DNA of 60,403 bases, taken from assembly GCA_031441465.1 (NCBI GenBank), contig JANOEP010000036.1, positions 1 through 60,403 of the forward strand, in the 5' to 3' direction. The DNA is from a bacterium (lineage in GTDB: Bacteria; Krumholzibacteriota; Krumholzibacteriia; LZORAL124-64-63). The position numbers and the translations under genes are program-made. Positions within the stretch are counted from its first letter, which is position 1. Each line of letters starts with the position of its first letter. Below, piece by piece: positions 52,348 through 60,403 of the stretch. The notes beneath the pieces are model-generated. The model saw only the letters and a list, made by a program, of their open reading frames with translations. It was not told the origin of the DNA and did no database searches.

Positions 52348-53271
52348 ATGACCGTCCTGAACATCGTCCTGCCCATCTTCCTGGTCATCGGCCTGGGCTA
52401 CGCCCTGCGCCGCCTGCGCTTCGTCACGACCGAGGGCAACGCCGTCCTGACGCGGCTGGTCTTCTACGTGGCGGCGCCGGTGCTGCTGGTGCGCGGCGCC
52501 GCCGGCACGTCGCTGCGCAGCAGCCTCGACCCGCGCGTCCTGGGCGTCTTCATCGTCGTGAGCGTGCTGGTCGCGGCCGTGACGTACGCGCTGGCGTTCC
52601 GGTCCCCCGCAGCGCGGCGCGGCGTCTTCGCGCAGGGATCGCACCGCAGCAACATGGTCTTCGTGGGCCTGCCGCTGGTCATGAACGCCTTCGGCGAGGA
52701 GGCCGTCGGGCAGATCTCGGTGCTGGTGGGCGCGATGGTCGTGGTCTACAACGTGCTGTCGATCGTGGTGCTGACCCTCCCCCACCACGGCGGGGGGCCG
52801 GGGCGGCGGGTGGATCTGGCGGGCATGCTGAAGCGCATCGCGGTCAACCCGCTGGCGCTCGGCAGCGCGGGCGGCATCGTCCTGTCGGCGACCGGCATCG
52901 CCATCCCGGCGACCCTCGGCAGCGCCATGGACCTCGTGGGCGGCACCGCCCTGCCCTTGGCCCTGGTGTCGGTCGGCGCGGGCCTGGACCTGGCTCGCCT
53001 TCGCCGCGAACTGAGGGGCGCCGCGACGACCTGCGTCCTGAAACTCGGCCTCTACCCCGCACTCGTCTACGTCGGGCTGCGCGCGCTCGGCCTCGACGGT
53101 GTCGCCCTGCAGGCGCCGGTGCTGCTGGCCGCCACGCCCACCGCCGTGGTCAGCTACGTCATGGCGCAGGAGATGCAGGGCGACGAGCAGCTCGCCGGCG
53201 CCATGGTCATCGGCACCACGCTGCTCTCGCTGCCGACGAGCATCCTCTGGCTGCTGCTGCTCGGCGTCTGA
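52348..53271 (+). CDS. AEC (auxin efflux carrier) family transporter
   Basis: LPIFLVIGLGY, SNMVFVGLP, PLALVSVG and PTA. Confidence 0.85.
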   Translation: MTVLNIVLPIFLVIGLGYALRRLRFVTTEGNAVLTRLVFYVAAPVLLVRGAAGTSLRSSLDPRVLGVFIVVSVLVAAVTYALAFRSPAARRGVFAQGSHRSNMVFVGLPLVMNAFGEEAVGQISVLVGAMVVVYNVLSIVVLTLPHHGGGPGRRVDLAGMLKRIAVNPLALGSAGGIVLSATGIAIPATLGSAMDLVGGTALPLALVSVGAGLDLARLRRELRGAATTCVLKLGLYPALVYVGLRALGLDGVALQAPVLLAATPTAVVSYVMAQEMQGDEQLAGAMVIGTTLLSLPTSILWLLLLGV

Positions 53272-53291
53272 CACCCGCGGCCTCCGGGAGG

Positions 53292-54704
53292 ATGCGCATG
53301 GGAACCGACCGACGCGACTTCCTCAAGCTGATCGTCGCTGCCACGGCCGCCTCCGCCCTGCCGGCGTGGTCCGGTTCGCCGGCGCCCGCTCCCGAGCCCA
53401 GGCCCGCGACCGCGCTCCCGCGCCGTCCCGACATTCTGGTCGTGCTGGCCGACGACCACCGCCACGACGCCCTCGGCTGCGCCGGCCACCCCTACGTGCA
53501 GACGCCCGCCCTGGACCGCGTCGCGGCCGGAGGCGTCCGCTTCACGAACGCCTGCGTGACGACCTCGCTTTGCAGCCCGTCGCGCGCCAGCTACCTGACG
53601 GGCTGCTACCCGCACCGGCACGGCCTCTGCACCAACGCCAACCGCTCCCTGAGGTCGGACCTGCCCACCTACCCGGCGCTGTTGCAGGCGGCCGGCTACG
53701 AGACGGCCTTCCTGGGCAAGTGGCACCTCGGCGAACAGACCGCCCGCCAGCCCGGCTTCGACCACTGGGCCGTGCTGCGCGGCCAGGGCGCCTACGCGCC
53801 CAACGACCTCGTGGTCGACGACCAACCCGTCCGCGAGGAACGCTACATCACCGACGCGCTCACCGAGCGCGCCGTGGAGATCATGACGCGGCCCCGCGAC
53901 AAGCCGTTGCTGCTGGTGCTGAGCCACAAGGCGGCGCACGGCCCCTTCGTACCGGCGGAACGCCATGCCCGGCTCTACGCCGACGAGGATCCGGATCTTT
54001 ACTGGGCCCCGGACGAAGACGTCTCCCGCAAGCCGTCCCGGCCGGATCGCACGACCTACGAGTCCCAGCGCGGTTCGGTCCTGGATTATTACCGCTGCCT
54101 GGCCGCCGTCGACGAGAGCATGGCCGCCCTGGACGCCGAGCTGGAGAAGACGGGCCGGCGCGACGACACGCTTCTGGTCTACACCAGCGACAACGGTTTC
54201 CTGCTCGGCGAGCACGGCGGGCTGTGGGACAAGCGCTGCGCCTACGAGCCGGCCATCCGGGTGCCGCTGCTCGTGCGCTGGCCGCGCACCCTGCCCGGCG
54301 GCGCCGTCAGCGGGGAACTGGCCCTGAACCTCGACCTGCTGCCGTCGCTGCTCGAGGCCGCGGGCGTGAAGGTCCCGCCTGGCGTCCAGGGCCGCTCCTG
54401 GCTGCCGCTCGCCCGCGGCGGGACCGGTCGCGACGAGTTCCTCTACGAGTATTTCCAGGACGAGGGCCCGGTCGGCTCGCTGGTCGCCGTGCGCACGCGC
54501 CGCTGGAAGTACGTGGCGCCCCTGGACCACCACGGCGGCCGCAACGCGCGACAGCCGGTGGAGATGTACGACCTCGCCGCCGATCCCGGCGAGCTGCGCA
54601 ACCTCGCGGGCGACCCGGCATTCGCGGCCGAACGGGAAGAACTGGAAAGAACCCTCGTGCGGCTGATGGACGAGACGGGCTACGTCTTCTGCGGGTCGCG
54701 ATGA
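53292..54704 (+). CDS. Tat-exported Cys-type sulfatase
   Basis: DRRDFLK Tat motif, ADDH, CSPSRASYLTG, GKWHLG and SDNG. Confidence 0.92.
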   Translation: MRMGTDRRDFLKLIVAATAASALPAWSGSPAPAPEPRPATALPRRPDILVVLADDHRHDALGCAGHPYVQTPALDRVAAGGVRFTNACVTTSLCSPSRASYLTGCYPHRHGLCTNANRSLRSDLPTYPALLQAAGYETAFLGKWHLGEQTARQPGFDHWAVLRGQGAYAPNDLVVDDQPVREERYITDALTERAVEIMTRPRDKPLLLVLSHKAAHGPFVPAERHARLYADEDPDLYWAPDEDVSRKPSRPDRTTYESQRGSVLDYYRCLAAVDESMAALDAELEKTGRRDDTLLVYTSDNGFLLGEHGGLWDKRCAYEPAIRVPLLVRWPRTLPGGAVSGELALNLDLLPSLLEAAGVKVPPGVQGRSWLPLARGGTGRDEFLYEYFQDEGPVGSLVAVRTRRWKYVAPLDHHGGRNARQPVEMYDLAADPGELRNLAGDPAFAAEREELERTLVRLMDETGYVFCGSR

Positions 54705-55828
54705 CGGCCGCCCCGCGCGGGCCGTCCCTGCTGCTGGTCAAGCCTGCCGGCGCCGACTGCAACTTCCGCTGCGACTACTGTTTCTACCTCGACGCCGACG
54801 CCCGCCGCGGCGCGTCCCGCCGCCGCATGAGCGACGAGGTCCTCGAACGGATGATCGCCTCCTACCTCGCGCTCGACCTGCCGGTCCACGCCTTCTGCTG
54901 GCAGGGTGGCGAACCGACGCTGATGGGTCTCGACTTTTACCGCAGGGTGACGGAACTGCAGGAGCGGCACGGCCGGCCCGGCACGGTCATCGCCAACAGC
55001 CTGCAGACCAACGCCGCGCTGATCGACGACGCGTTCGCCGATCACCTGGCCGAGTACCGCTTCCTGGTGGGGTGCAGCCTCGACGGGCCGCCGCGCCTGC
55101 ACGACCGGCGGCGGCGCGGCGCGCAGGGAGGCGCAACCCACGAACACACCGTGACCGGGTTGCGCCGGCTGCAAGCGCGGGACGTGGCGGTCAACGCCCT
55201 CTGCGTGGTCCACGACGTCAACGTCGGCCACGCACGCGAGGTGTTCGGCCATCTCGCCGGACTGGGCTTCGACCACCTGCAGTTCCTGCCCTGCGTCGAG
55301 TTCGGGCCCGATGGCGCGCCGCGGCCCTGGACGATCGACGGGCGGGGGTGGGGAGAGTTCCTGATCGGGATCTTCGAGGCGTGGCGGGACACGGGGATGA
55401 CGGTCTCGGTGCGGAACCTCGACGCCGTCCTGCAGCGATTGGTCGACGATCGGCCAGGGGACTGCACGATGGATGACAGTTGCCGGCAGTACTTGGTCGT
55501 CGAGCACGACGGGGGGTACTATCCCTGCGATTTCAACGTCTCGCCGGACCGTCGCCTGGGCAACGTCATGGACATGACGCCCGCCGCCGCGATGGCCGCG
55601 ACGGGCATGGTCGAATTCGGTGCAGGCAAGGCGCCTGCGTCGACCTCCTGTCCGGCGTGCCGGCACTTCGACATCTGCCGCGGCGGCTGCCCTGCCAGGC
55701 GCGATCCGCGCGAAGCCGCGGGCAGGGAGTGGCTGTGCGAGGGGACGCTCGCCCACCTGGACCATGCGCGAGGATATCTGGAGTTCCTGGCGGACGGGAT
55801 CCGCAGGGCGCAGCGGGAAGGCGCCTGA
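54701..55828 (+). CDS. Anaerobic sulfatase maturase (radical SAM/SPASM)
   Basis: KPAGADCNFRCDYCFY, WQGGEPTL, LQTN, YPCD and CxxC-x5-C-x3-C SPASM; ATGA overlap with the sulfatase. Confidence 0.9.
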   Translation: MTAAPRGPSLLLVKPAGADCNFRCDYCFYLDADARRGASRRRMSDEVLERMIASYLALDLPVHAFCWQGGEPTLMGLDFYRRVTELQERHGRPGTVIANSLQTNAALIDDAFADHLAEYRFLVGCSLDGPPRLHDRRRRGAQGGATHEHTVTGLRRLQARDVAVNALCVVHDVNVGHAREVFGHLAGLGFDHLQFLPCVEFGPDGAPRPWTIDGRGWGEFLIGIFEAWRDTGMTVSVRNLDAVLQRLVDDRPGDCTMDDSCRQYLVVEHDGGYYPCDFNVSPDRRLGNVMDMTPAAAMAATGMVEFGAGKAPASTSCPACRHFDICRGGCPARRDPREAAGREWLCEGTLAHLDHARGYLEFLADGIRRAQREGA

Positions 55829-55847: not shown

Positions 55848-56930
55848 TCAGGACCCGCCCCCGTTCCACGGCAGTCCGGGATCGAAGAAGTGCAGCCCCT
55901 GTCCCAGCTTCACCCCGATCACCGCTGCCGGGTAGCGCGCCACCAGCTCCGGATGCGCGAAAAACCCGGCCGCCTGCCTTTCCCCCCGCCCGACCATCTC
56001 AAAGCTGACATCCAGCGGTCGCTCGATGTTGGGGGCATAAGCCACCCGCACCAAGCACTCCGAAGCGCCCGTCTGCACAGCCCTGACCGCCGCCTCGCGC
56101 GCCCCGTACGACCCGATCCGGTCGATGTGCGAGAGGTGCTTGCCCGACAGCGCCCCGCCGCCGATCGGGATGCGCGGGCCGTAGAAGTCCATGACGAGCT
56201 TGCGGCCGGTCTGGCCGTTGTCGCCGTTGCTGCCGGCCTGCACCAGCGGGCCGTTCGGGTTGATCATCAGCCCGATCTCGTCCCAGCGGGCGCGCCAGCG
56301 CGGGTCGCGCTCCCTCGCTTCGGAGTAAGCGCGCGCGAGCACCAGCACGACCGCCTCGCAAACATCCATGAACGCGGCGTCGGCATGCTGCTGGAGCGTG
56401 ACCAGTAAATGTTCCACGATCCAGCGCCCGCCCTCCTCGCGCATACGCAGCAGCAACTTGCCGTCCGGCCCCTGCCCGGCCAGCGGTCCTTCAGCGCAGG
56501 CAGAGGCCAGCGCCTCGCGGAACACGTGGCAAAGGTAGTGTTCCGGCGGCAGGTAGCGCGTGTTCGCGTCGTAACCTGCCCAGCCCAGCACCACGCTCTG
56601 GTCGTTGACCTTCCCCGTGAACCGCGCGGGATCGTCCAGCACTTCGCACACGGCGCTGTGCACCGTGTAGCGGTTGGCGTCGACGTGGTTGCCGGGGACG
56701 TAGCCGATGTCCAGCCCCGTTTGAACCACGATGTCCCGCAGCGTGCGCGCCAGGGGCCGGCGGGTGCAGACGCCGCCCGTCAGCCAGAGTTGGCAGGACC
56801 AGACGGCGGCCTCGATCTGCGCGTAGGCGTCCGCATCGACGCCGACGCATTCGGCGACGATGGCGTCGGCGACCTGGTCGCAGAACTTGTCGGGGTGGCC
56901 GGACAGGACGATTTCGCTGATGCGGATCAT
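55848..56930 (-). CDS. Divergent methionine adenosyltransferase (MetK)-like protein
   Basis: SEIVLSGHPDKFCDQVAD, NDQS, PDGK, NPNG...GDNGQTGRKLVMDFYG and GGGALSGK...DR; 360 aa. Confidence 0.85.
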   Translation of the reverse strand: MIRISEIVLSGHPDKFCDQVADAIVAECVGVDADAYAQIEAAVWSCQLWLTGGVCTRRPLARTLRDIVVQTGLDIGYVPGNHVDANRYTVHSAVCEVLDDPARFTGKVNDQSVVLGWAGYDANTRYLPPEHYLCHVFREALASACAEGPLAGQGPDGKLLLRMREEGGRWIVEHLLVTLQQHADAAFMDVCEAVVLVLARAYSEARERDPRWRARWDEIGLMINPNGPLVQAGSNGDNGQTGRKLVMDFYGPRIPIGGGALSGKHLSHIDRIGSYGAREAAVRAVQTGASECLVRVAYAPNIERPLDVSFEMVGRGERQAAGFFAHPELVARYPAAVIGVKLGQGLHFFDPGLPWNGGGS

Positions 56931-58309
56931 GTGCGGTTTCCTTTCAGTTCCGGGAGCTGGGTGTAGGCGAGGCCGGCGCGCTCCAGCGCGGCGGGATTGC
57001 CGTCGCGGCTGACCAGCACGTGCAGCTTCGTGCCGGACGCCCTCGCCACGAGCTGCGGGTCCAGGGCCTCGATGTAGCCGTCGGTGACCACCACGGCGGA
57101 GGCCGGGCGCGTCCTGATCACGTGTTCCAGCACGCAGGACAGGCTGGTGCCGCCCGTGGTCTGAGCCTTCAGGACGCCGCGCTCGATGACGGCGGGCGCG
57201 ACGACGTCGCTGAAGGCCCAGAACGGCCGGCGGATCAGGCCGGAGAGCTGGCCGAGCAGGTTCACGATCTGCGGCATCTCGGCGTGCATGGATCCCGACA
57301 CGTCCAGGTAGACCTGGGCCGTGCCGGCGCGGCGCGGCGCGGACCCCTCCCAGGCCGCTTCCGGCAGGAAGGGCGTCCACTGCGCGCGCAGGAAGGCGCG
57401 GCGGTCTCCCGACGACAGCACCGGCAGCCGGTAGTCGCACGGGGAGTCGACGCGGCGCCGTGAGCGGCGATCGGGCGAGAGATGGCGGCGGAGGATCGCG
57501 AGCGTCGTCGCCCGCCAGCGCCGCAACGGCGCGTCGTCCGCCCTGATGAGCGCCTCGTAGGGGTTGGCGCCGACGCCGCGGCTGCCGGGTGAACGCCAGA
57601 TGCCGTGGCCGTTCATCTCCTTCATCGCCCGCTCCAGGGCGTCGCGCAGGGGACCCACCAGTTCTTGGTCGAACTCGTCGTGGTTGCCCAGCAGGTCGCC
57701 GGGCTCGTCGGACCCGTCGTCCCCGAACGTGAAGGGCCCCGGGCCCTGCACCTCCGTCGACGGATTCTCGAGCTGCTCCGCCAGGGCTTCGATGTCGTCG
57801 GCGATCAGTCCGCCCCGGTACAGCGACTCCCAGGCCAGAACCCAGGACGGCAACCGGCTCCGCTCCTCGCAACTGCGGACGGTCTTCAAACAGTCGGACT
57901 CCTGCGCGCCCATCGGTCGCAGCAGCTTGCGGCGGCCGGCCGCCTTCGCGTAGTAGCGCGCGAAGATCGAGGAGTACCCCGGCCCGTGCTGACGGTGGAT
58001 GATGGCGTTGATCACGGCGTCGACGGCCAGATGACGGGCCGGCGTCACCGGCCGCCTCTGCTCGGTGTGGCGCAGGATCACGTGCAGGAACTCGTGACAG
58101 ACGACCGCCTTCACCTCGTCGTCGTTCGCGCAATGCCCGCCGATGAAGTCGAGGTTGACCAGCAGCCGCGGACGGTCCGTGCAGGTCACGGCCAAGGTCA
58201 GCACCGCCGTGGTGAATTCGATCTCCAGGATCTGCAGCGCGGCTCGGATGGCGAAGGGGTTCTCGTCGATCAGCTCCAGCAGGATCGAGCGGAAGCGTCG
58301 TTCGTTCAT
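56927..58309 (-). CDS. HExxH putative metallopeptidase plus vWA domain protein (DUF2201-like MoxR partner)
   Basis: HEFLHVILRH...AVDAVIN; MIDAS DVSGS, GGTS and VVTDG. Confidence 0.85.
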   Translation of the reverse strand: MNERRFRSILLELIDENPFAIRAALQILEIEFTTAVLTLAVTCTDRPRLLVNLDFIGGHCANDDEVKAVVCHEFLHVILRHTEQRRPVTPARHLAVDAVINAIIHRQHGPGYSSIFARYYAKAAGRRKLLRPMGAQESDCLKTVRSCEERSRLPSWVLAWESLYRGGLIADDIEALAEQLENPSTEVQGPGPFTFGDDGSDEPGDLLGNHDEFDQELVGPLRDALERAMKEMNGHGIWRSPGSRGVGANPYEALIRADDAPLRRWRATTLAILRRHLSPDRRSRRRVDSPCDYRLPVLSSGDRRAFLRAQWTPFLPEAAWEGSAPRRAGTAQVYLDVSGSMHAEMPQIVNLLGQLSGLIRRPFWAFSDVVAPAVIERGVLKAQTTGGTSLSCVLEHVIRTRPASAVVVTDGYIEALDPQLVARASGTKLHVLVSRDGNPAALERAGLAYTQLPELKGNRT

Positions 58310-58773
58310 GAGTAGAATCCATCCAGGTCGAAGAGTTCGAGACCGCGTCCGAGGCTGGCCTCGGTCCAGAGCACCGGCCGCGCCGGGTCGTAGATCTGCG
58401 CCGTGCAGAGGCCCAGCATCAGCGCCTGGCGCAGCACCGCAGTGCGTTGGCCGCTTGCCGCGGACAGCCGCGGGGCATCGGGAGGCAGCGACCGGCAGAC
58501 CAGTCGCCTCTCCGGCAACTGGAACACGCCCCGCAGGTCTTCGGGATCGGCGTAGCCGGCTTCGGCCAGCAGGTTCTCCAGCGCCTCGACACGCGTCGGT
58601 GCGGCGAAATGGAGGCCCAAGCGGATCACGCACGGGCAGCGGATCTCGCCGTCGTCCTTGCCGAGCAGCGAGGAAGCGACCGTCTCGGTGCGGGTGCGGC
58701 TCATGGGGCCGCCCATGTTGGCGCGCAGGACGGGCCGCCGCTCCGTCTGCGCACACCATCCCGAGGCGATCAT
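58306..58773 (-). CDS. Hypothetical protein (155 aa; alternative start 58704)
   Basis: Fills the gap exactly, with ATGA overlaps to both neighbours; no recognisable motif. Confidence 0.55.
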   Translation of the reverse strand: MIASGWCAQTERRPVLRANMGGPMSRTRTETVASSLLGKDDGEIRCPCVIRLGLHFAAPTRVEALENLLAEAGYADPEDLRGVFQLPERRLVCRSLPPDAPRLSAASGQRTAVLRQALMLGLCTAQIYDPARPVLWTEASLGRGLELFDLDGFYS

Positions 58774-60170
58774 CGTTGCCACCATTCCGCGAGGTACCTG
58801 GCGCAGTCCTCGATCTCCTGCTCCAGCGCGGCCGGGTCCTCGGGACTGACCCGCTCGACCAGGCACCAGTTGAAGTACTGGCGCGCCCGCTCGTAGCGCC
58901 CGCTGTCGGCCTCCAAATCGGCGAGCACACGCGCGAAACGGTCGCAGTCGGGATGGACCGTGCCCTGCTCGGCGATGCGTTCCTGCCAGGAGATCTCGCC
59001 CGCCACCGACAAGATGGGAGCGGCCGCCTTGGCGAGGTCGTTGACCCCCTCCGCCCCGATGAAGAGAAAGCCCTTCGCCGCGGCCGCGTACGTGGCGAAG
59101 GCGAAGGCCGCGGCCCGTTCCTTGGATTCCGAAGCCAGCAGCTGGGCCACGGCCTGGGAGCACAGGTCCGGAGTCCGGCCGTGCTCGCCCAGGATCTTCA
59201 CCTTCCGCACCAGGGGATTCTCGACCAGGAATCGGTGGATCCAGCCGTCCTCGAACGGCGAGATGCAATCCAGCGCGTAGCGGTGAGCCGCCGCGACGGC
59301 TTCCTCCCTGACTTTCACCCCCCAGGTCCGCTGCGGCAGGCTGGCCTGGAGCACGCACAGGCACATCTGGTCGGTCGTCTCACCCGCGACGATCGTTGCT
59401 GCCAGCAGGCTGCGCACCATCAACCGCACGCGGCGCGGCGACACGCGGATGCCCGCGCTGTTGAGCGCCGAGACCGCGTGGACCATGTAGACCAGGATGC
59501 GTTCGGGGCAATCCTCGACCTGCTCGCGGAAGGTCTGTCGCCACGTTTCGACCAGCCCCTTGAGCCGCCCCGCGTCGTCCGCGATCCTCCCTTCTCCGCT
59601 CGGGTCGGCGATGAGCCGCCGCGCCTCATCGTCCAGACCTCTCCAGTCCGACGCTTCCACGAACAGCGCAAACCGATCGGCCAGTGCCTGATCCAGCGGC
59701 TCCGACCCCGCGTAGTCCTCGGCCCCCCCCCGGTCGGCCGAGCACGGGTTCATCGCCGCCCACCGGTAACGCAGCCTGGGCAGCGCGATCCCCTGGATCC
59801 GGCGCTCGTGCACGAGCGCGAACAGGCGGTTCTGGTGCTCGGGCTTGCAGCGGCTGATCTCGTCGATCAGCACCGACTCGGCGCCCCAGACCGTGGCCGG
59901 TGTTTCGAGAAATTTCACGGCGCCGCGCTCCTGGTCCGGATACGGGAACCCGACCAGGTCGTCGAACGAGATCAGGCTGGCGTTGTAGTGGCGGTGTTCG
60001 AGGCCCAGGGCTTCGGAGAGGGAATTGAGCAGGAAGGTCTTGCCGGTGCCCGAGGCCCCGATCAGCAGCAACGGGTCCTCGGTGACCAGCGCGGCCAGGA
60101 TCACTGGCTCGAGCCGGTCGAATCCGTAGACGCCGAGATCGCACAGGTGGGAATGCGCACGGGTAGGCAC
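58770..60170 (-). CDS. MoxR-like AAA+ ATPase
   Basis: Walker A GASGTGKT, Walker B VLIDE, AAMNP sensor, LDQALADRF Arg finger; AGGAGG RBS before GTG. Confidence 0.9.
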   Translation of the reverse strand: MPTRAHSHLCDLGVYGFDRLEPVILAALVTEDPLLLIGASGTGKTFLLNSLSEALGLEHRHYNASLISFDDLVGFPYPDQERGAVKFLETPATVWGAESVLIDEISRCKPEHQNRLFALVHERRIQGIALPRLRYRWAAMNPCSADRGGAEDYAGSEPLDQALADRFALFVEASDWRGLDDEARRLIADPSGEGRIADDAGRLKGLVETWRQTFREQVEDCPERILVYMVHAVSALNSAGIRVSPRRVRLMVRSLLAATIVAGETTDQMCLCVLQASLPQRTWGVKVREEAVAAAHRYALDCISPFEDGWIHRFLVENPLVRKVKILGEHGRTPDLCSQAVAQLLASESKERAAAFAFATYAAAAKGFLFIGAEGVNDLAKAAAPILSVAGEISWQERIAEQGTVHPDCDRFARVLADLEADSGRYERARQYFNWCLVERVSPEDPAALEQEIEDCARYLAEWWQR

Positions 60171-60175
60171 GTCGT

Positions 60176-60233
60176 CCTCCTTTTAGCGGGTTTGCCGGTA
60201 TGGCGGGGCCGCAAGCTGGATTCAAATCCCCCG
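60176..60233 (-). ncRNA. SAM-II (SAM-alpha)-like riboswitch
   Basis: Minus strand reads CGGGG-GATTTG-AATCCA-GCTTGC-GG-CCCCG-17 nt-GCTAAAAGGAGG. It shows a P1 stem, the GAUUU/UUGC/GCUAAA hallmarks and a pseudoknot pairing into the SD sequence. Confidence 0.75.
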
Positions 60234-60257
60234 GCCCGTCAGGTGGGCCAGCCCTCG

Positions 60258-60289
60258 GTCGGCGCCGCCGCGTTGCGGCGGTCGCCGAC
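60258..60289 (-). other. GC-rich hairpin after the metK stop (terminator-like or RNA-processing element)
   Basis: GTCGGCG(A)CCGCCGC-aac-GCGGCGGCGCCGAC; no U tract. Confidence 0.5.
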
Positions 60290-60308
60290 ATCCTTCACTC
60301 CTTCGTCG

Positions 60309-60403
60309 TCACGTGGCGACGTGTTCCCACAGGAAGTCCGGCTCCTCGCGCCCGAAGTGCCCGTAGGCCGCCGTGTCGTAGTAGATGGGCCGCAGCAGTC
60401 GCA
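60309..60403 (-). CDS. metK: 3' end of S-adenosylmethionine synthetase (partial)
   Basis: Manual translation [30 protein letters not shown] matches the canonical MetK C-terminus. Confidence 0.8.

Follow-up and report, generated by a model that had tools for sequence, protein, structure and literature searches.

Does the RNA just upstream of a MoxR-like AAA+ ATPase gene sense S-adenosylmethionine (SAM), and if so, to which class of riboswitch would it belong? The question arises on a contig (JANOEP010000036.1 of assembly GCA_031441465.1) from a bacterium of the Krumholzibacteriota, the whole of which, 60,403 nucleotides (nt) in length, is referred to here as the window. All coordinates are those of the window, and the RNA element, a metK gene and the ATPase cassette all lie on its minus strand. 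An earlier note on this DNA had read the region as a SAM-II-like riboswitch sequestering the ribosome-binding site of the ATPase gene. We now consider it highly likely that the RNA at about 60168-60251 functions as a SAM-responsive translational OFF riboswitch with the pseudoknot fold of SAM-II and SAM-V, and SAM itself is the most likely ligand. Very probably, judging from its sequence and that of its relatives, this RNA belongs to a new variant within the SAM-II/SAM-V fold, one missed by current Rfam models; elements of its type are called type B below.

Architecture of the RNA Element

The minus-strand string on which the earlier note was based is present in the window exactly as written, at 60176-60233, and its parts could be read directly from the sequence. 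They comprise a P1 helix formed by CGGGG (60233-60229) with CCCCG (60208-60204), the motifs GAUUUG, AAUCCA and GCUUGC between the P1 strands, and a GUG start codon (60170-60168) located five bases after GCUAAAAGGAGG, which ends at 60176. Both of the proposed pairings, UUGC with GC(U)AA and UCC with the GGA of the Shine-Dalgarno (SD) sequence, can also be drawn. The core thus stands where it had been placed, but the RNA is larger, with a 5' hairpin (60233-60249) and a linker hairpin (60194-60204) in addition, so that the full element at about 60168-60251 contains five helices, P0, P1, P2a, P2b and P3.

At the 5' end, P0 (60233-60249) pairs GGCCC (60249-60245) with GGGCC (60237-60233) around the loop ACCUGAC and abuts P1. 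The 5' strand of P1, GGGG (60229-60232), pairs with CCCC (60205-60208), as seen both in the sequence and in its covariation, and an optional fifth pair, C60233-G60204, can be added; relatives have GGGAG/CUCCC, CGGU/ACCG or CCGGG/CCCGG instead. Next comes L1, GAUUUGAA (60221-60228), which fits the SAM_alpha consensus GAUUUGa and contains a U run that is nearly invariant in an alignment of 15 sequences. By analogy with the structures of SAM-V and of SAM-II described in PMC6061858, L1 is presumed to serve as the third strand of a triplex. The 5' strand of P2a, an invariant UCC (60218-60220), pairs with the GGA of the SD, and 95.6% of P2a cells are paired across the alignment; in the window itself, the register is ambiguous, since GGA occurs at both 60180-60178 and 60177-60175. 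The 5' strand of P2b, CUUGCGG (60209-60215), contains an invariant UUG and a GCGG that pairs with CCGC (60189-60186), with compensatory changes in the 15-sequence alignment.

On the 3' side of P1, and abutting it, is P3 (60194-60204), a 3-bp hairpin of GCC with GGC and the loop AUACC. The order from there is P3, AAA (60193-60191), and then CCGCUAAAA. The AAA is mostly AA(A/U) in the family and may act as an A-stack, a role taken from SAM-V. The 3' strand of P2b and the presumed ligand site, CCGC-U-AAAA (60181-60189), fit the SAM_alpha motif CGCUAAA, and CUAAA is invariant in all 15 aligned sequences. Within it, U60185 would be the counterpart of the U with which SAM's adenine pairs, if the contacts reported in PMC6061858 hold here. 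The SD itself, AAGGAGG (60176-60182), is separated from the GUG by 5 nt; P2a and P2b cover it in the model, and a nested minimum free energy (MFE) fold pairs it as well. The motifs that contact SAM in known structures, AUUU, UUG and CUAAA, are all kept in the window's element.

These features suggest how the RNA could regulate expression. With SAM bound, the U-rich strand after P1 would lie in the groove of P2b (UUGCGG with CCGC-U-AA), and the short P2a (UCC with GGA) would close. AAGGAGG would then be buried, leaving the ATPase gene 5 nt downstream untranslated. Because the starts of the next three genes lie within ATGA overlaps, these genes (encoding a 155-amino-acid (aa) protein, an HExxH protein of the von Willebrand factor A (VWA) type and a MetK-like protein) are probably translationally coupled to the ATPase gene and would be silenced along with it. 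When SAM is low, the 3' tail would be free and all four proteins would be made.

Conservation and Covariation

Across four genomes of the same genus, the 84 nt that precede the start codon share 96% identity with the window, as compared with 75-77% for the adjoining intergenic DNA and 80-92% for the ATPase coding sequence. A first alignment consisted of 15 type B copies chosen by a loose motif search, which biases the selection. With the pseudoknot included, 94.5% of its cells were paired, versus at most 64.7% when the partners were slid against one another; compensatory changes were found in 8 of the 22 pairs, and none of these measures was reached by more than 1 of 500 shuffles. RNAalifold, which draws no pseudoknots, picked P0, P3 and both P2 helices unaided.

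The pseudoknot was tested independently with a pattern describing the 5' half of the element only (the P1 end, AUUU, UCC, UUGC, one free base and GCCCC). This half-site pattern matched at least 124 metagenome stretches and three viral-contig stretches. From the former, 80 loci were fetched. Of 79 distinct copies, 75 had at least 55 nt of downstream DNA. A strict 3' half (C, N', G, C/U, UAA(A/G), at most 3 nt, GGAG and a start codon) was present in 71 of these 75, and the other four were close variants. Moreover, the free loop base N, which occupies the third P2b position, could pair with N' in 71 of 71 cases (C-G 39, G-C 21, U-A 4, U-G 3, A-U 3 and G-U 1).

A covariance model built from P0, P1 and P3, termed R1, was also applied. 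Its score on the window, 88.3 bits, is circular since the window is in the seed. Outside the seed, it gave 74.9 bits for locus L058, 43.2 bits for a second copy in L086 and 45.2 bits for a truncated copy in L037, and in another genome of the class it gave 97.3 bits directly before an ATPase orthologue. Classical SAM-II-like copies received only 14-19 bits. R1 detected 91 copies in the metagenome loci, or 88 distinct rows; in this alignment, which was fitted to R1 and hence is biased towards the model, 97.6% of P0, P1 and P3 cells and 98.9% of P1 cells were paired, and 11 of the 13 pairs had undergone compensatory changes. For P0, such changes rose from 3 of 5 pairs in the 15 sequences to 5 of 5 in the 88. 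The middle pair of P3 was A-U in 41 of the 88, C-G in 30 and G-C in 13, and all three forms occurred in the 15-sequence set as well. The variant is rare in its own lineage: R1 found a single copy in the window's genome and, under stricter filters, copies in only 2 of 151 genomes of the class, the window's included.

Taken together, the conservation within the genus and the covariation of all helices indicate that the element is more than a chance arrangement. They likewise bear out the earlier reading of an H-type pseudoknot of the SAM-II kind sequestering the SD of the ATPase gene, as P1 and the pseudoknot covary and the SAM-II/SAM-V core motifs are kept.

Database Models and Folding Energy

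When the whole window was scanned at Rfam gathering thresholds, no family passed. In a permissive scan of 60100-60403, SAM_alpha (RF00521) aligned over its full length at 60163-60242 on the minus strand, scoring 14.5 bits (cut-off 36) with an E-value of 0.63; genome-wide, the same match had an E-value of 1.75 and ranked second among eight sub-threshold matches. SAM-II long loops (RF01726, cut-off 44 bits) and SAM_V (RF01826, cut-off 41 bits) gave no match in the genome at E-values up to 10, nor did the SAM-I and SAM-I/IV models at E-values up to 0.01. Thus, the covariance-model check suggested with the original proposal came out only weakly in its favour: SAM_alpha aligns from end to end at a low score, and SAM_V has no match in the genome. 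With five Rfam SAM models and R1, the element is the sole SAM-class aptamer found in the assembled genome, which is 96.8% complete, and no SAM_alpha match there reaches its cut-off. Applied to this variant in five other genomes, the SAM_V model gave 29, 24.4 and 20.1 bits in three and no match on the variant in two.

Given this silence at the gathering thresholds, Rfam is useless as the sole test, and by database score alone the finding would fail. Folding energy is of no more help. The MFE fold of 60150-60310 has a z-score of -1.09 and pairs the SD without P1, and it is therefore uninformative on switching.

A separate observation concerns Bp2_287 (RF02424), a Burkholderia small RNA (sRNA) candidate, which matches the plus strand of the window at 60145-60228 with 9.7 bits against a cut-off of 70. 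In relatives, it scores 24-33 bits on the strand opposite SAM-II-like elements (L011 at 64-192 on the minus strand, L016 and L017). Since the aligned part is the reverse complement of the SAM-II core, this family may hold an antisense reading of a SAM-II riboswitch.

SAM Riboswitches Upstream of Orthologous ATPase Genes

Relatives of the ATPase were found in 9 of 61 related genomes, with the window's genome counted. Four loci of the same genus carry the same element at the same place, together with a SAM_alpha match of about 30 bits before the upstream metK. Three loci with 43%-identical ATPases each have two tandem SAM_alpha-like elements (24-30 bits), and in one locus from another family the ATPase gene is immediately preceded by a SAM-I/IV riboswitch, at 66.2 bits against a cut-off of 41.1.

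A wide search for the ATPase, limited to one genome per species, returned 406 relatives, of which the best 80 loci were kept; by the submitters' labels, these come from many phyla. An Rfam-grade SAM-I, SAM-I/IV or SAM-II riboswitch occurs upstream on the same strand in 42 of these 80 loci, in 37 of them within 500 nt. SAM-I/IV matches were many among these riboswitches, with SAM-I matches and some SAM_alpha matches besides. Type B occurs in 16 of the 80, and either type B or an Rfam-grade SAM riboswitch in 52. Upstream DNA is shorter than 200 nt in six of the 80 loci, five of which are among the 28 without a riboswitch. When 10 of those 28 were rescanned by E-value, one showed a SAM-I/IV at 48.5 bits, four showed SAM-I-like elements at 27.9-40.8 bits and five showed nothing. 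The nearest riboswitch class was then mapped onto a FastTree phylogeny of 79 ATPase rows (the window and 78 loci, two loci having been dropped for translations under 330 aa). Labels could be placed on 57 rows, with four sub-threshold SAM-I-like elements counted as SAM-I and three elements identified by regular expression counted as SAM-II-like. The class changes at least nine times on this tree, which argues that the ATPase gene was placed under SAM control repeatedly by different aptamers.

SAM is the likely ligand of the window's element because Rfam-grade riboswitches of the SAM-I, SAM-I/IV and SAM-II classes precede orthologues of the ATPase gene in other phyla. The same homologous genes support the earlier suggestion that the operon is tied to SAM, and control of the ATPase cassette by the element appears real at the level of comparative genomics. 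Likewise, the suggestion that control of a MoxR gene would be a new association agrees with the literature searched, where no report of it was found. Full-text searches returned no paper joining a SAM riboswitch with MoxR, or with von Willebrand plus AAA, and the association was absent from the titles and abstracts retrieved for MoxR, MetK and riboswitch. In methionine regulons of Proteobacteria, the SAM_alpha targets given are metY, metA, metX, hom, metC and metW, and the word ATPase is absent from the available part of that study (PMC4239095).

Two further observations come from these loci. Short SAM-I-like elements of about 86 nt, at 28-41 bits against a cut-off of 44.4, lie just before ATPase orthologues in loci mostly labelled Acidobacteriota (L048 2892-2977; L052 2892-2977; L055 2877-2962 and 2664-2749; L067 2183-2289), and these may be another under-recognised SAM-I variant. 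In addition, two SAM aptamer classes can stand in direct tandem before the ATPase gene, either SAM_alpha with SAM-I/IV (both above cut-off) or SAM-I/IV with type B (L091 2388-2465 and 2505-2612; L092 2298-2375 and 2415-2522; L029 2620-2726 and 2748-2851). Type B is found in tandem with an Rfam-grade SAM aptamer in L029, L049 and L087.

Relationship to SAM-II and SAM-V

SAM-II consists of one stem and a pseudoknot, usually followed by a terminator, according to PMC1273637; SAM is bound within P2b, and sequestration of the SD can occur, according to PMC3326309. PMC6061858 describes SAM-V, found in an analysis of marine alpha-proteobacteria and Bacteroidetes, as a fold whose P1 has 4 bp, whose third strand occupies the P2 groove and whose descending P2 strand runs into P1. 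After P1 come a 3-bp P3 stem-loop, stacked A residues that make A-minor contacts with P1, and the ascending P2 strand; a short P2a contains the SD. The adenine of SAM pairs with a U, and its sulfonium faces a U:A.U triple. The same text states that P3 is missing from SAM-II, that most SAM-II riboswitches are transcriptional and that their P2a is usually a stable helix of 5 bp.

Measured against the SAM-V of metY in 'Candidatus Pelagibacter ubique', the window's element shares the H-type pseudoknot, the 4-bp P1, the U-rich third strand and the P2 strand running into P1. It also shares a 3-bp P3 straight after P1, an A run, an ascending P2 strand with CUAAA, and a short P2a that includes the SD, consistent with a predicted translational function. 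Unlike SAM-V, however, type B is GC-rich, has an extra covarying P0 that abuts P1 and extends P2b by a covarying GCGG/CCGC; no copy reaches 41 bits. Its loci come from many phyla, as labelled by submitters, and from diverse metagenome contigs, and its target genes are different. No description of P0 or of the P2b extension was found in the portions of the texts on SAM-II and SAM-V that were compared.

With SAM-II (RF00521), which controls metA and metX, the element shares a stem and pseudoknot that both covary, predicted OFF switching, sequestration of the SD as in the metX representative, and core motifs (GAUUUG, GCUUGC and CGCUAAA) that align over the full model. In contrast to SAM-II, it scores 14.5 bits against 36 and has a covarying P3 (60194-60204) and a P2a of 3 bp rather than about 5. 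The element has no terminator and so would act on translation, whereas SAM-II acts mostly on transcription; classical-like copies with a terminator do occur before metK in the same loci. Hence, the class proposed in the earlier note holds for the core motifs and the H-type pseudoknot, but the architecture, with its P3, AAA and short SD-containing P2a, appears closer to SAM-V, as far as three-dimensional features can be projected from sequence.

A known arrangement pairs a transcriptional SAM-II-type aptamer with a translational SAM-V-type aptamer on one mRNA, and both types are combined here, too. In L087 and L073, a SAM-II-type element and type B stand in direct tandem before the ATPase gene; in the window's genus, metK lies between them. 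What differs from the known pair is that the second aptamer can lie within the operon, so that metK and the downstream cassette would be controlled differently, and that the downstream genes are outside the methionine pathway.

The ATPase Cassette and Its Operon

The riboswitch does precede the AAA+ ATPase gene, as had been claimed, but it lies inside an operon, after a second metK, and not at its 5' end. Only the 3' end of this metK (60309-60403, with stop codon TGA at 60311-60309) is in the window, as the contig end cuts the gene; the fragment has the MetK C-terminal motif and, over 30 aa, shares 87% identity with the complete metK found at a same-genus locus. Elsewhere in the genome, a separate full-length metK (C54:69752-70837, minus strand) is 57% identical to a relative's cassette-linked metK, which indicates that the cassette supplies a second SAM synthetase of its own. 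Immediately behind the stop codon of the window's metK is a GC-rich hairpin without a U-tract (60258-60289), strong in the MFE fold, and same-genus relatives have a hairpin of different sequence at this position; located between metK and the riboswitch, it may act in processing or stability, or as a site of pausing. A scan found no promoter- or terminator-like site between metK and the ATPase gene, and transcription attenuation was therefore dropped for the window's copy.

In a same-genus locus, metK is preceded first by a promoter-like site and then by a SAM-II-like pseudoknot; next comes an antiterminator pairing in which the GCUAAAGCG tail takes part, and last a hairpin with a U-rich run. 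This arrangement indicates transcriptional control, and together with the type B element it suggests that the cassette is probably gated twice, first in transcription and then in translation. The window's counterpart of this leader would lie beyond the contig end.

The ATPase gene (58770-60170) begins with the GUG at 60170-60168 and encodes 466 aa with AAA_5 (33.7 bits, cut-off 22) and AAA_3 (28.8 bits, cut-off 27) domains. Its stop codon is overlapped by the ATG of the 155-aa protein gene (58306-58773), the orthologue of which matched no family in Pfam or NCBIfam. Next is the gene for the 460-aa HExxH and VWA-like protein (56927-58309), which has a weak DUF2201 match and the motifs HEFLH and DVSGSM, followed by a divergent MetK-like gene of 360 aa (55848-56930). 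The MetK-like protein keeps GHPDK and a GGGALSGK motif without GAGDQG, and the TIGR01034 model gives its orthologue 163.7 bits, where the cut-off is 309.4. All three cassette junctions are ATGA overlaps. Open reading frames (ORFs) of 824 and 667 aa were considered as fusion proteins and rejected as long-ORF artefacts of high GC content; a homologous locus of lower GC content gives four genes. Converging on the end of the MetK-like gene is a radical SAM domain gene (53099-55828, plus strand), with the two stop codons about 20 nt apart.

Pairs of a MoxR AAA+ protein and a VWA protein, such as CbbQ-CbbO and NorQ-NorD, serve one client enzyme. The cassette resembles them, on the evidence of its genes, in having an AAA_5/AAA_3 ATPase beside a VWA/MIDAS protein and a candidate client, the MetK-like protein. 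It is unlike them in its extra 155-aa protein, in the HExxH of its VWA protein, in having a divergent SAM synthetase as candidate client, and in the predicted control of the whole set by a SAM riboswitch. Assignment of the cassette to a defence system was also tried and rejected, as PADLOC gave one 22.7-bit P-loop match to the four proteins and nothing else.

Some weak evidence of expression comes from a 795-nt metatranscriptome contig, about 91% identical to the window and assembled from a random-primed library, which spans 59842-60403, taking in parts of the ATPase gene and of metK and the element between them. The RNA libraries were searched by small shares of sampled words, and the contigs obtained came from relatives only.

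Other Genes Downstream of Type B Elements

Among 86 metagenome pattern matches, in which overlapping loci enter twice, metK was the first gene that could be recognised within 1.3 kb in 16, the ATPase gene in eight and another gene in 55; too little DNA was available in seven. Thus, metK is the most frequent identifiable target. The 62 distinct first-ORF products (L104-L182) included five recurrent families of small proteins that match no Pfam family, S1 (about 95 aa, 12 members), S2 (about 100-117 aa, nine members, with a weak phrog_2529 match), S3 (about 70 aa, eight members), S4 (about 120-229 aa, six members, with an RGLVRCxVCH motif) and S5 (about 140-210 aa, three members). The remaining clusters were metK (seven), the ATPase (two), a pair of 62-68 aa (two) and 13 singletons, including an SNF2 helicase. 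None of S1-S5 is encoded in the window. A phage origin of type B was considered as well; it is not supported by the three matches in the viral collection and the PHROG matches, which are few and functionless except for the helicase.

Type B copies also occur in series, two to four per contig, each before its own gene. The densest example, L155, has four in 2.9 kb (1-95, 341-446, 1568-1673 and 2817-2924), and series were also seen in L113, L123, L157, L105, L132 and L128. In four loci, the ATPase gene comes no more than a few hundred bases after a member of the ~70-aa family, and metK follows the ~120-aa family. Five cassette-bearing genomes have one to four type B copies each.

Alternative Explanations

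Several findings weigh against a SAM riboswitch here. No Rfam model accepts the element (SAM_alpha at 14.5 of 36 bits, E-value 1.75; RF01726 and SAM_V nothing), and the plain MFE fold pairs the SD without P1 and has unremarkable stability (z = -1.09). The P2a register of the window is one base off the family alignment, resulting in a C-A cell. Neither an Rfam-grade riboswitch nor type B was found in 28 of the 80 ATPase loci. The regulon would be odd for a SAM sensor, as 55 of 86 copies precede neither metK nor the ATPase gene, and 31 of the 33 products scanned from these other first genes have no Pfam family. Lastly, the bridging metatranscriptome contig carries no strand information and could come from DNA in the library.

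Some of these points would fit the same pseudoknot fold with another ligand, such as S-adenosylhomocysteine, decarboxylated SAM, a compound that the MetK-like enzyme makes from SAM, or an unrelated molecule. The failure at every Rfam SAM threshold and the predominance of small unknown proteins over methionine genes among the metagenome targets are in keeping with this idea, and there is a precedent in rare SAM-I variants that sense spermidine, as related in PMC10853860. Nevertheless, another ligand is unlikely. The motifs that surround SAM in the SAM-II/SAM-V structures of PMC6061858 (the U-rich third strand, UUG and CUAAA) are invariant or nearly so, metK is the commonest identifiable target, orthologous ATPase genes lie behind Rfam-grade SAM-I, SAM-I/IV and SAM-II, and the variant itself stands in tandem with such an aptamer in three loci. 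A structured leader that senses no metabolite, whether as a protein site, a constitutive mask of the SD or an element of mRNA processing or stability, might also account for a ligand-free nested fold that pairs the SD and for a position inside an operon just after a strong hairpin. This is very unlikely, since a pseudoknot with a single-stranded U run and an invariant CUAAA reproduces the SAM-II/SAM-V pocket and is more than an SD mask requires, and three other SAM aptamer classes at the same place in orthologous loci are hard to explain without SAM sensing.

The chance that the resemblance is fortuitous, or that an sRNA is encoded on the opposite strand, is practically negligible. The genome-wide SAM_alpha E-value of 1.75 and the plus-strand RF02424 match, 9.7 bits here and 24-33 bits in relatives, might be read in that way. 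Against this, five minus-strand helices covary, an SD and start codon follow in the sense orientation in 71 of 75 independent copies, and the Bp2_287 match is far under its 70-bit cut-off and aligns with the reverse complement of the SAM-II core. A SAM-responsive switch with the SAM-II/SAM-V fold thus accounts best for the window's element.

Biological Significance

If this interpretation is correct, Rfam thresholds miss a GC-rich branch of SAM-II/SAM-V that is common in metagenomes, with at least 124 stretches matched by the strict half-site pattern. It is conceivable, although on the whole doubtful, that type B constitutes a widespread, undescribed SAM-II/SAM-V subclass, marked by P0, P3 and an extended P2b, whose regulon consists of transferable modules forming a response to SAM starvation and not of methionine biosynthesis. 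Such modules would comprise an additional metK, the MoxR-VWA-MetK-like cassette and five or more families of small unknown proteins, often as a series of riboswitch-gene units with a translational switch for each gene. One possible role for such a response would be defence against SAM-destroying or MetK-inactivating enzymes of phages, in which the ATPase and VWA proteins would rescue or activate a MetK-like enzyme.

Riboswitches that lie within operons, and that recur before successive small genes, would be an unusual device, predicted to set a translational SAM threshold gene by gene. Finally, the convergence of SAM-I, SAM-I/IV, SAM-II and type B on one ATPase gene across many phyla would put an uncharacterised four-gene cassette into a SAM-starvation regulon, and SAM depletion could thus provide a handle on its function.

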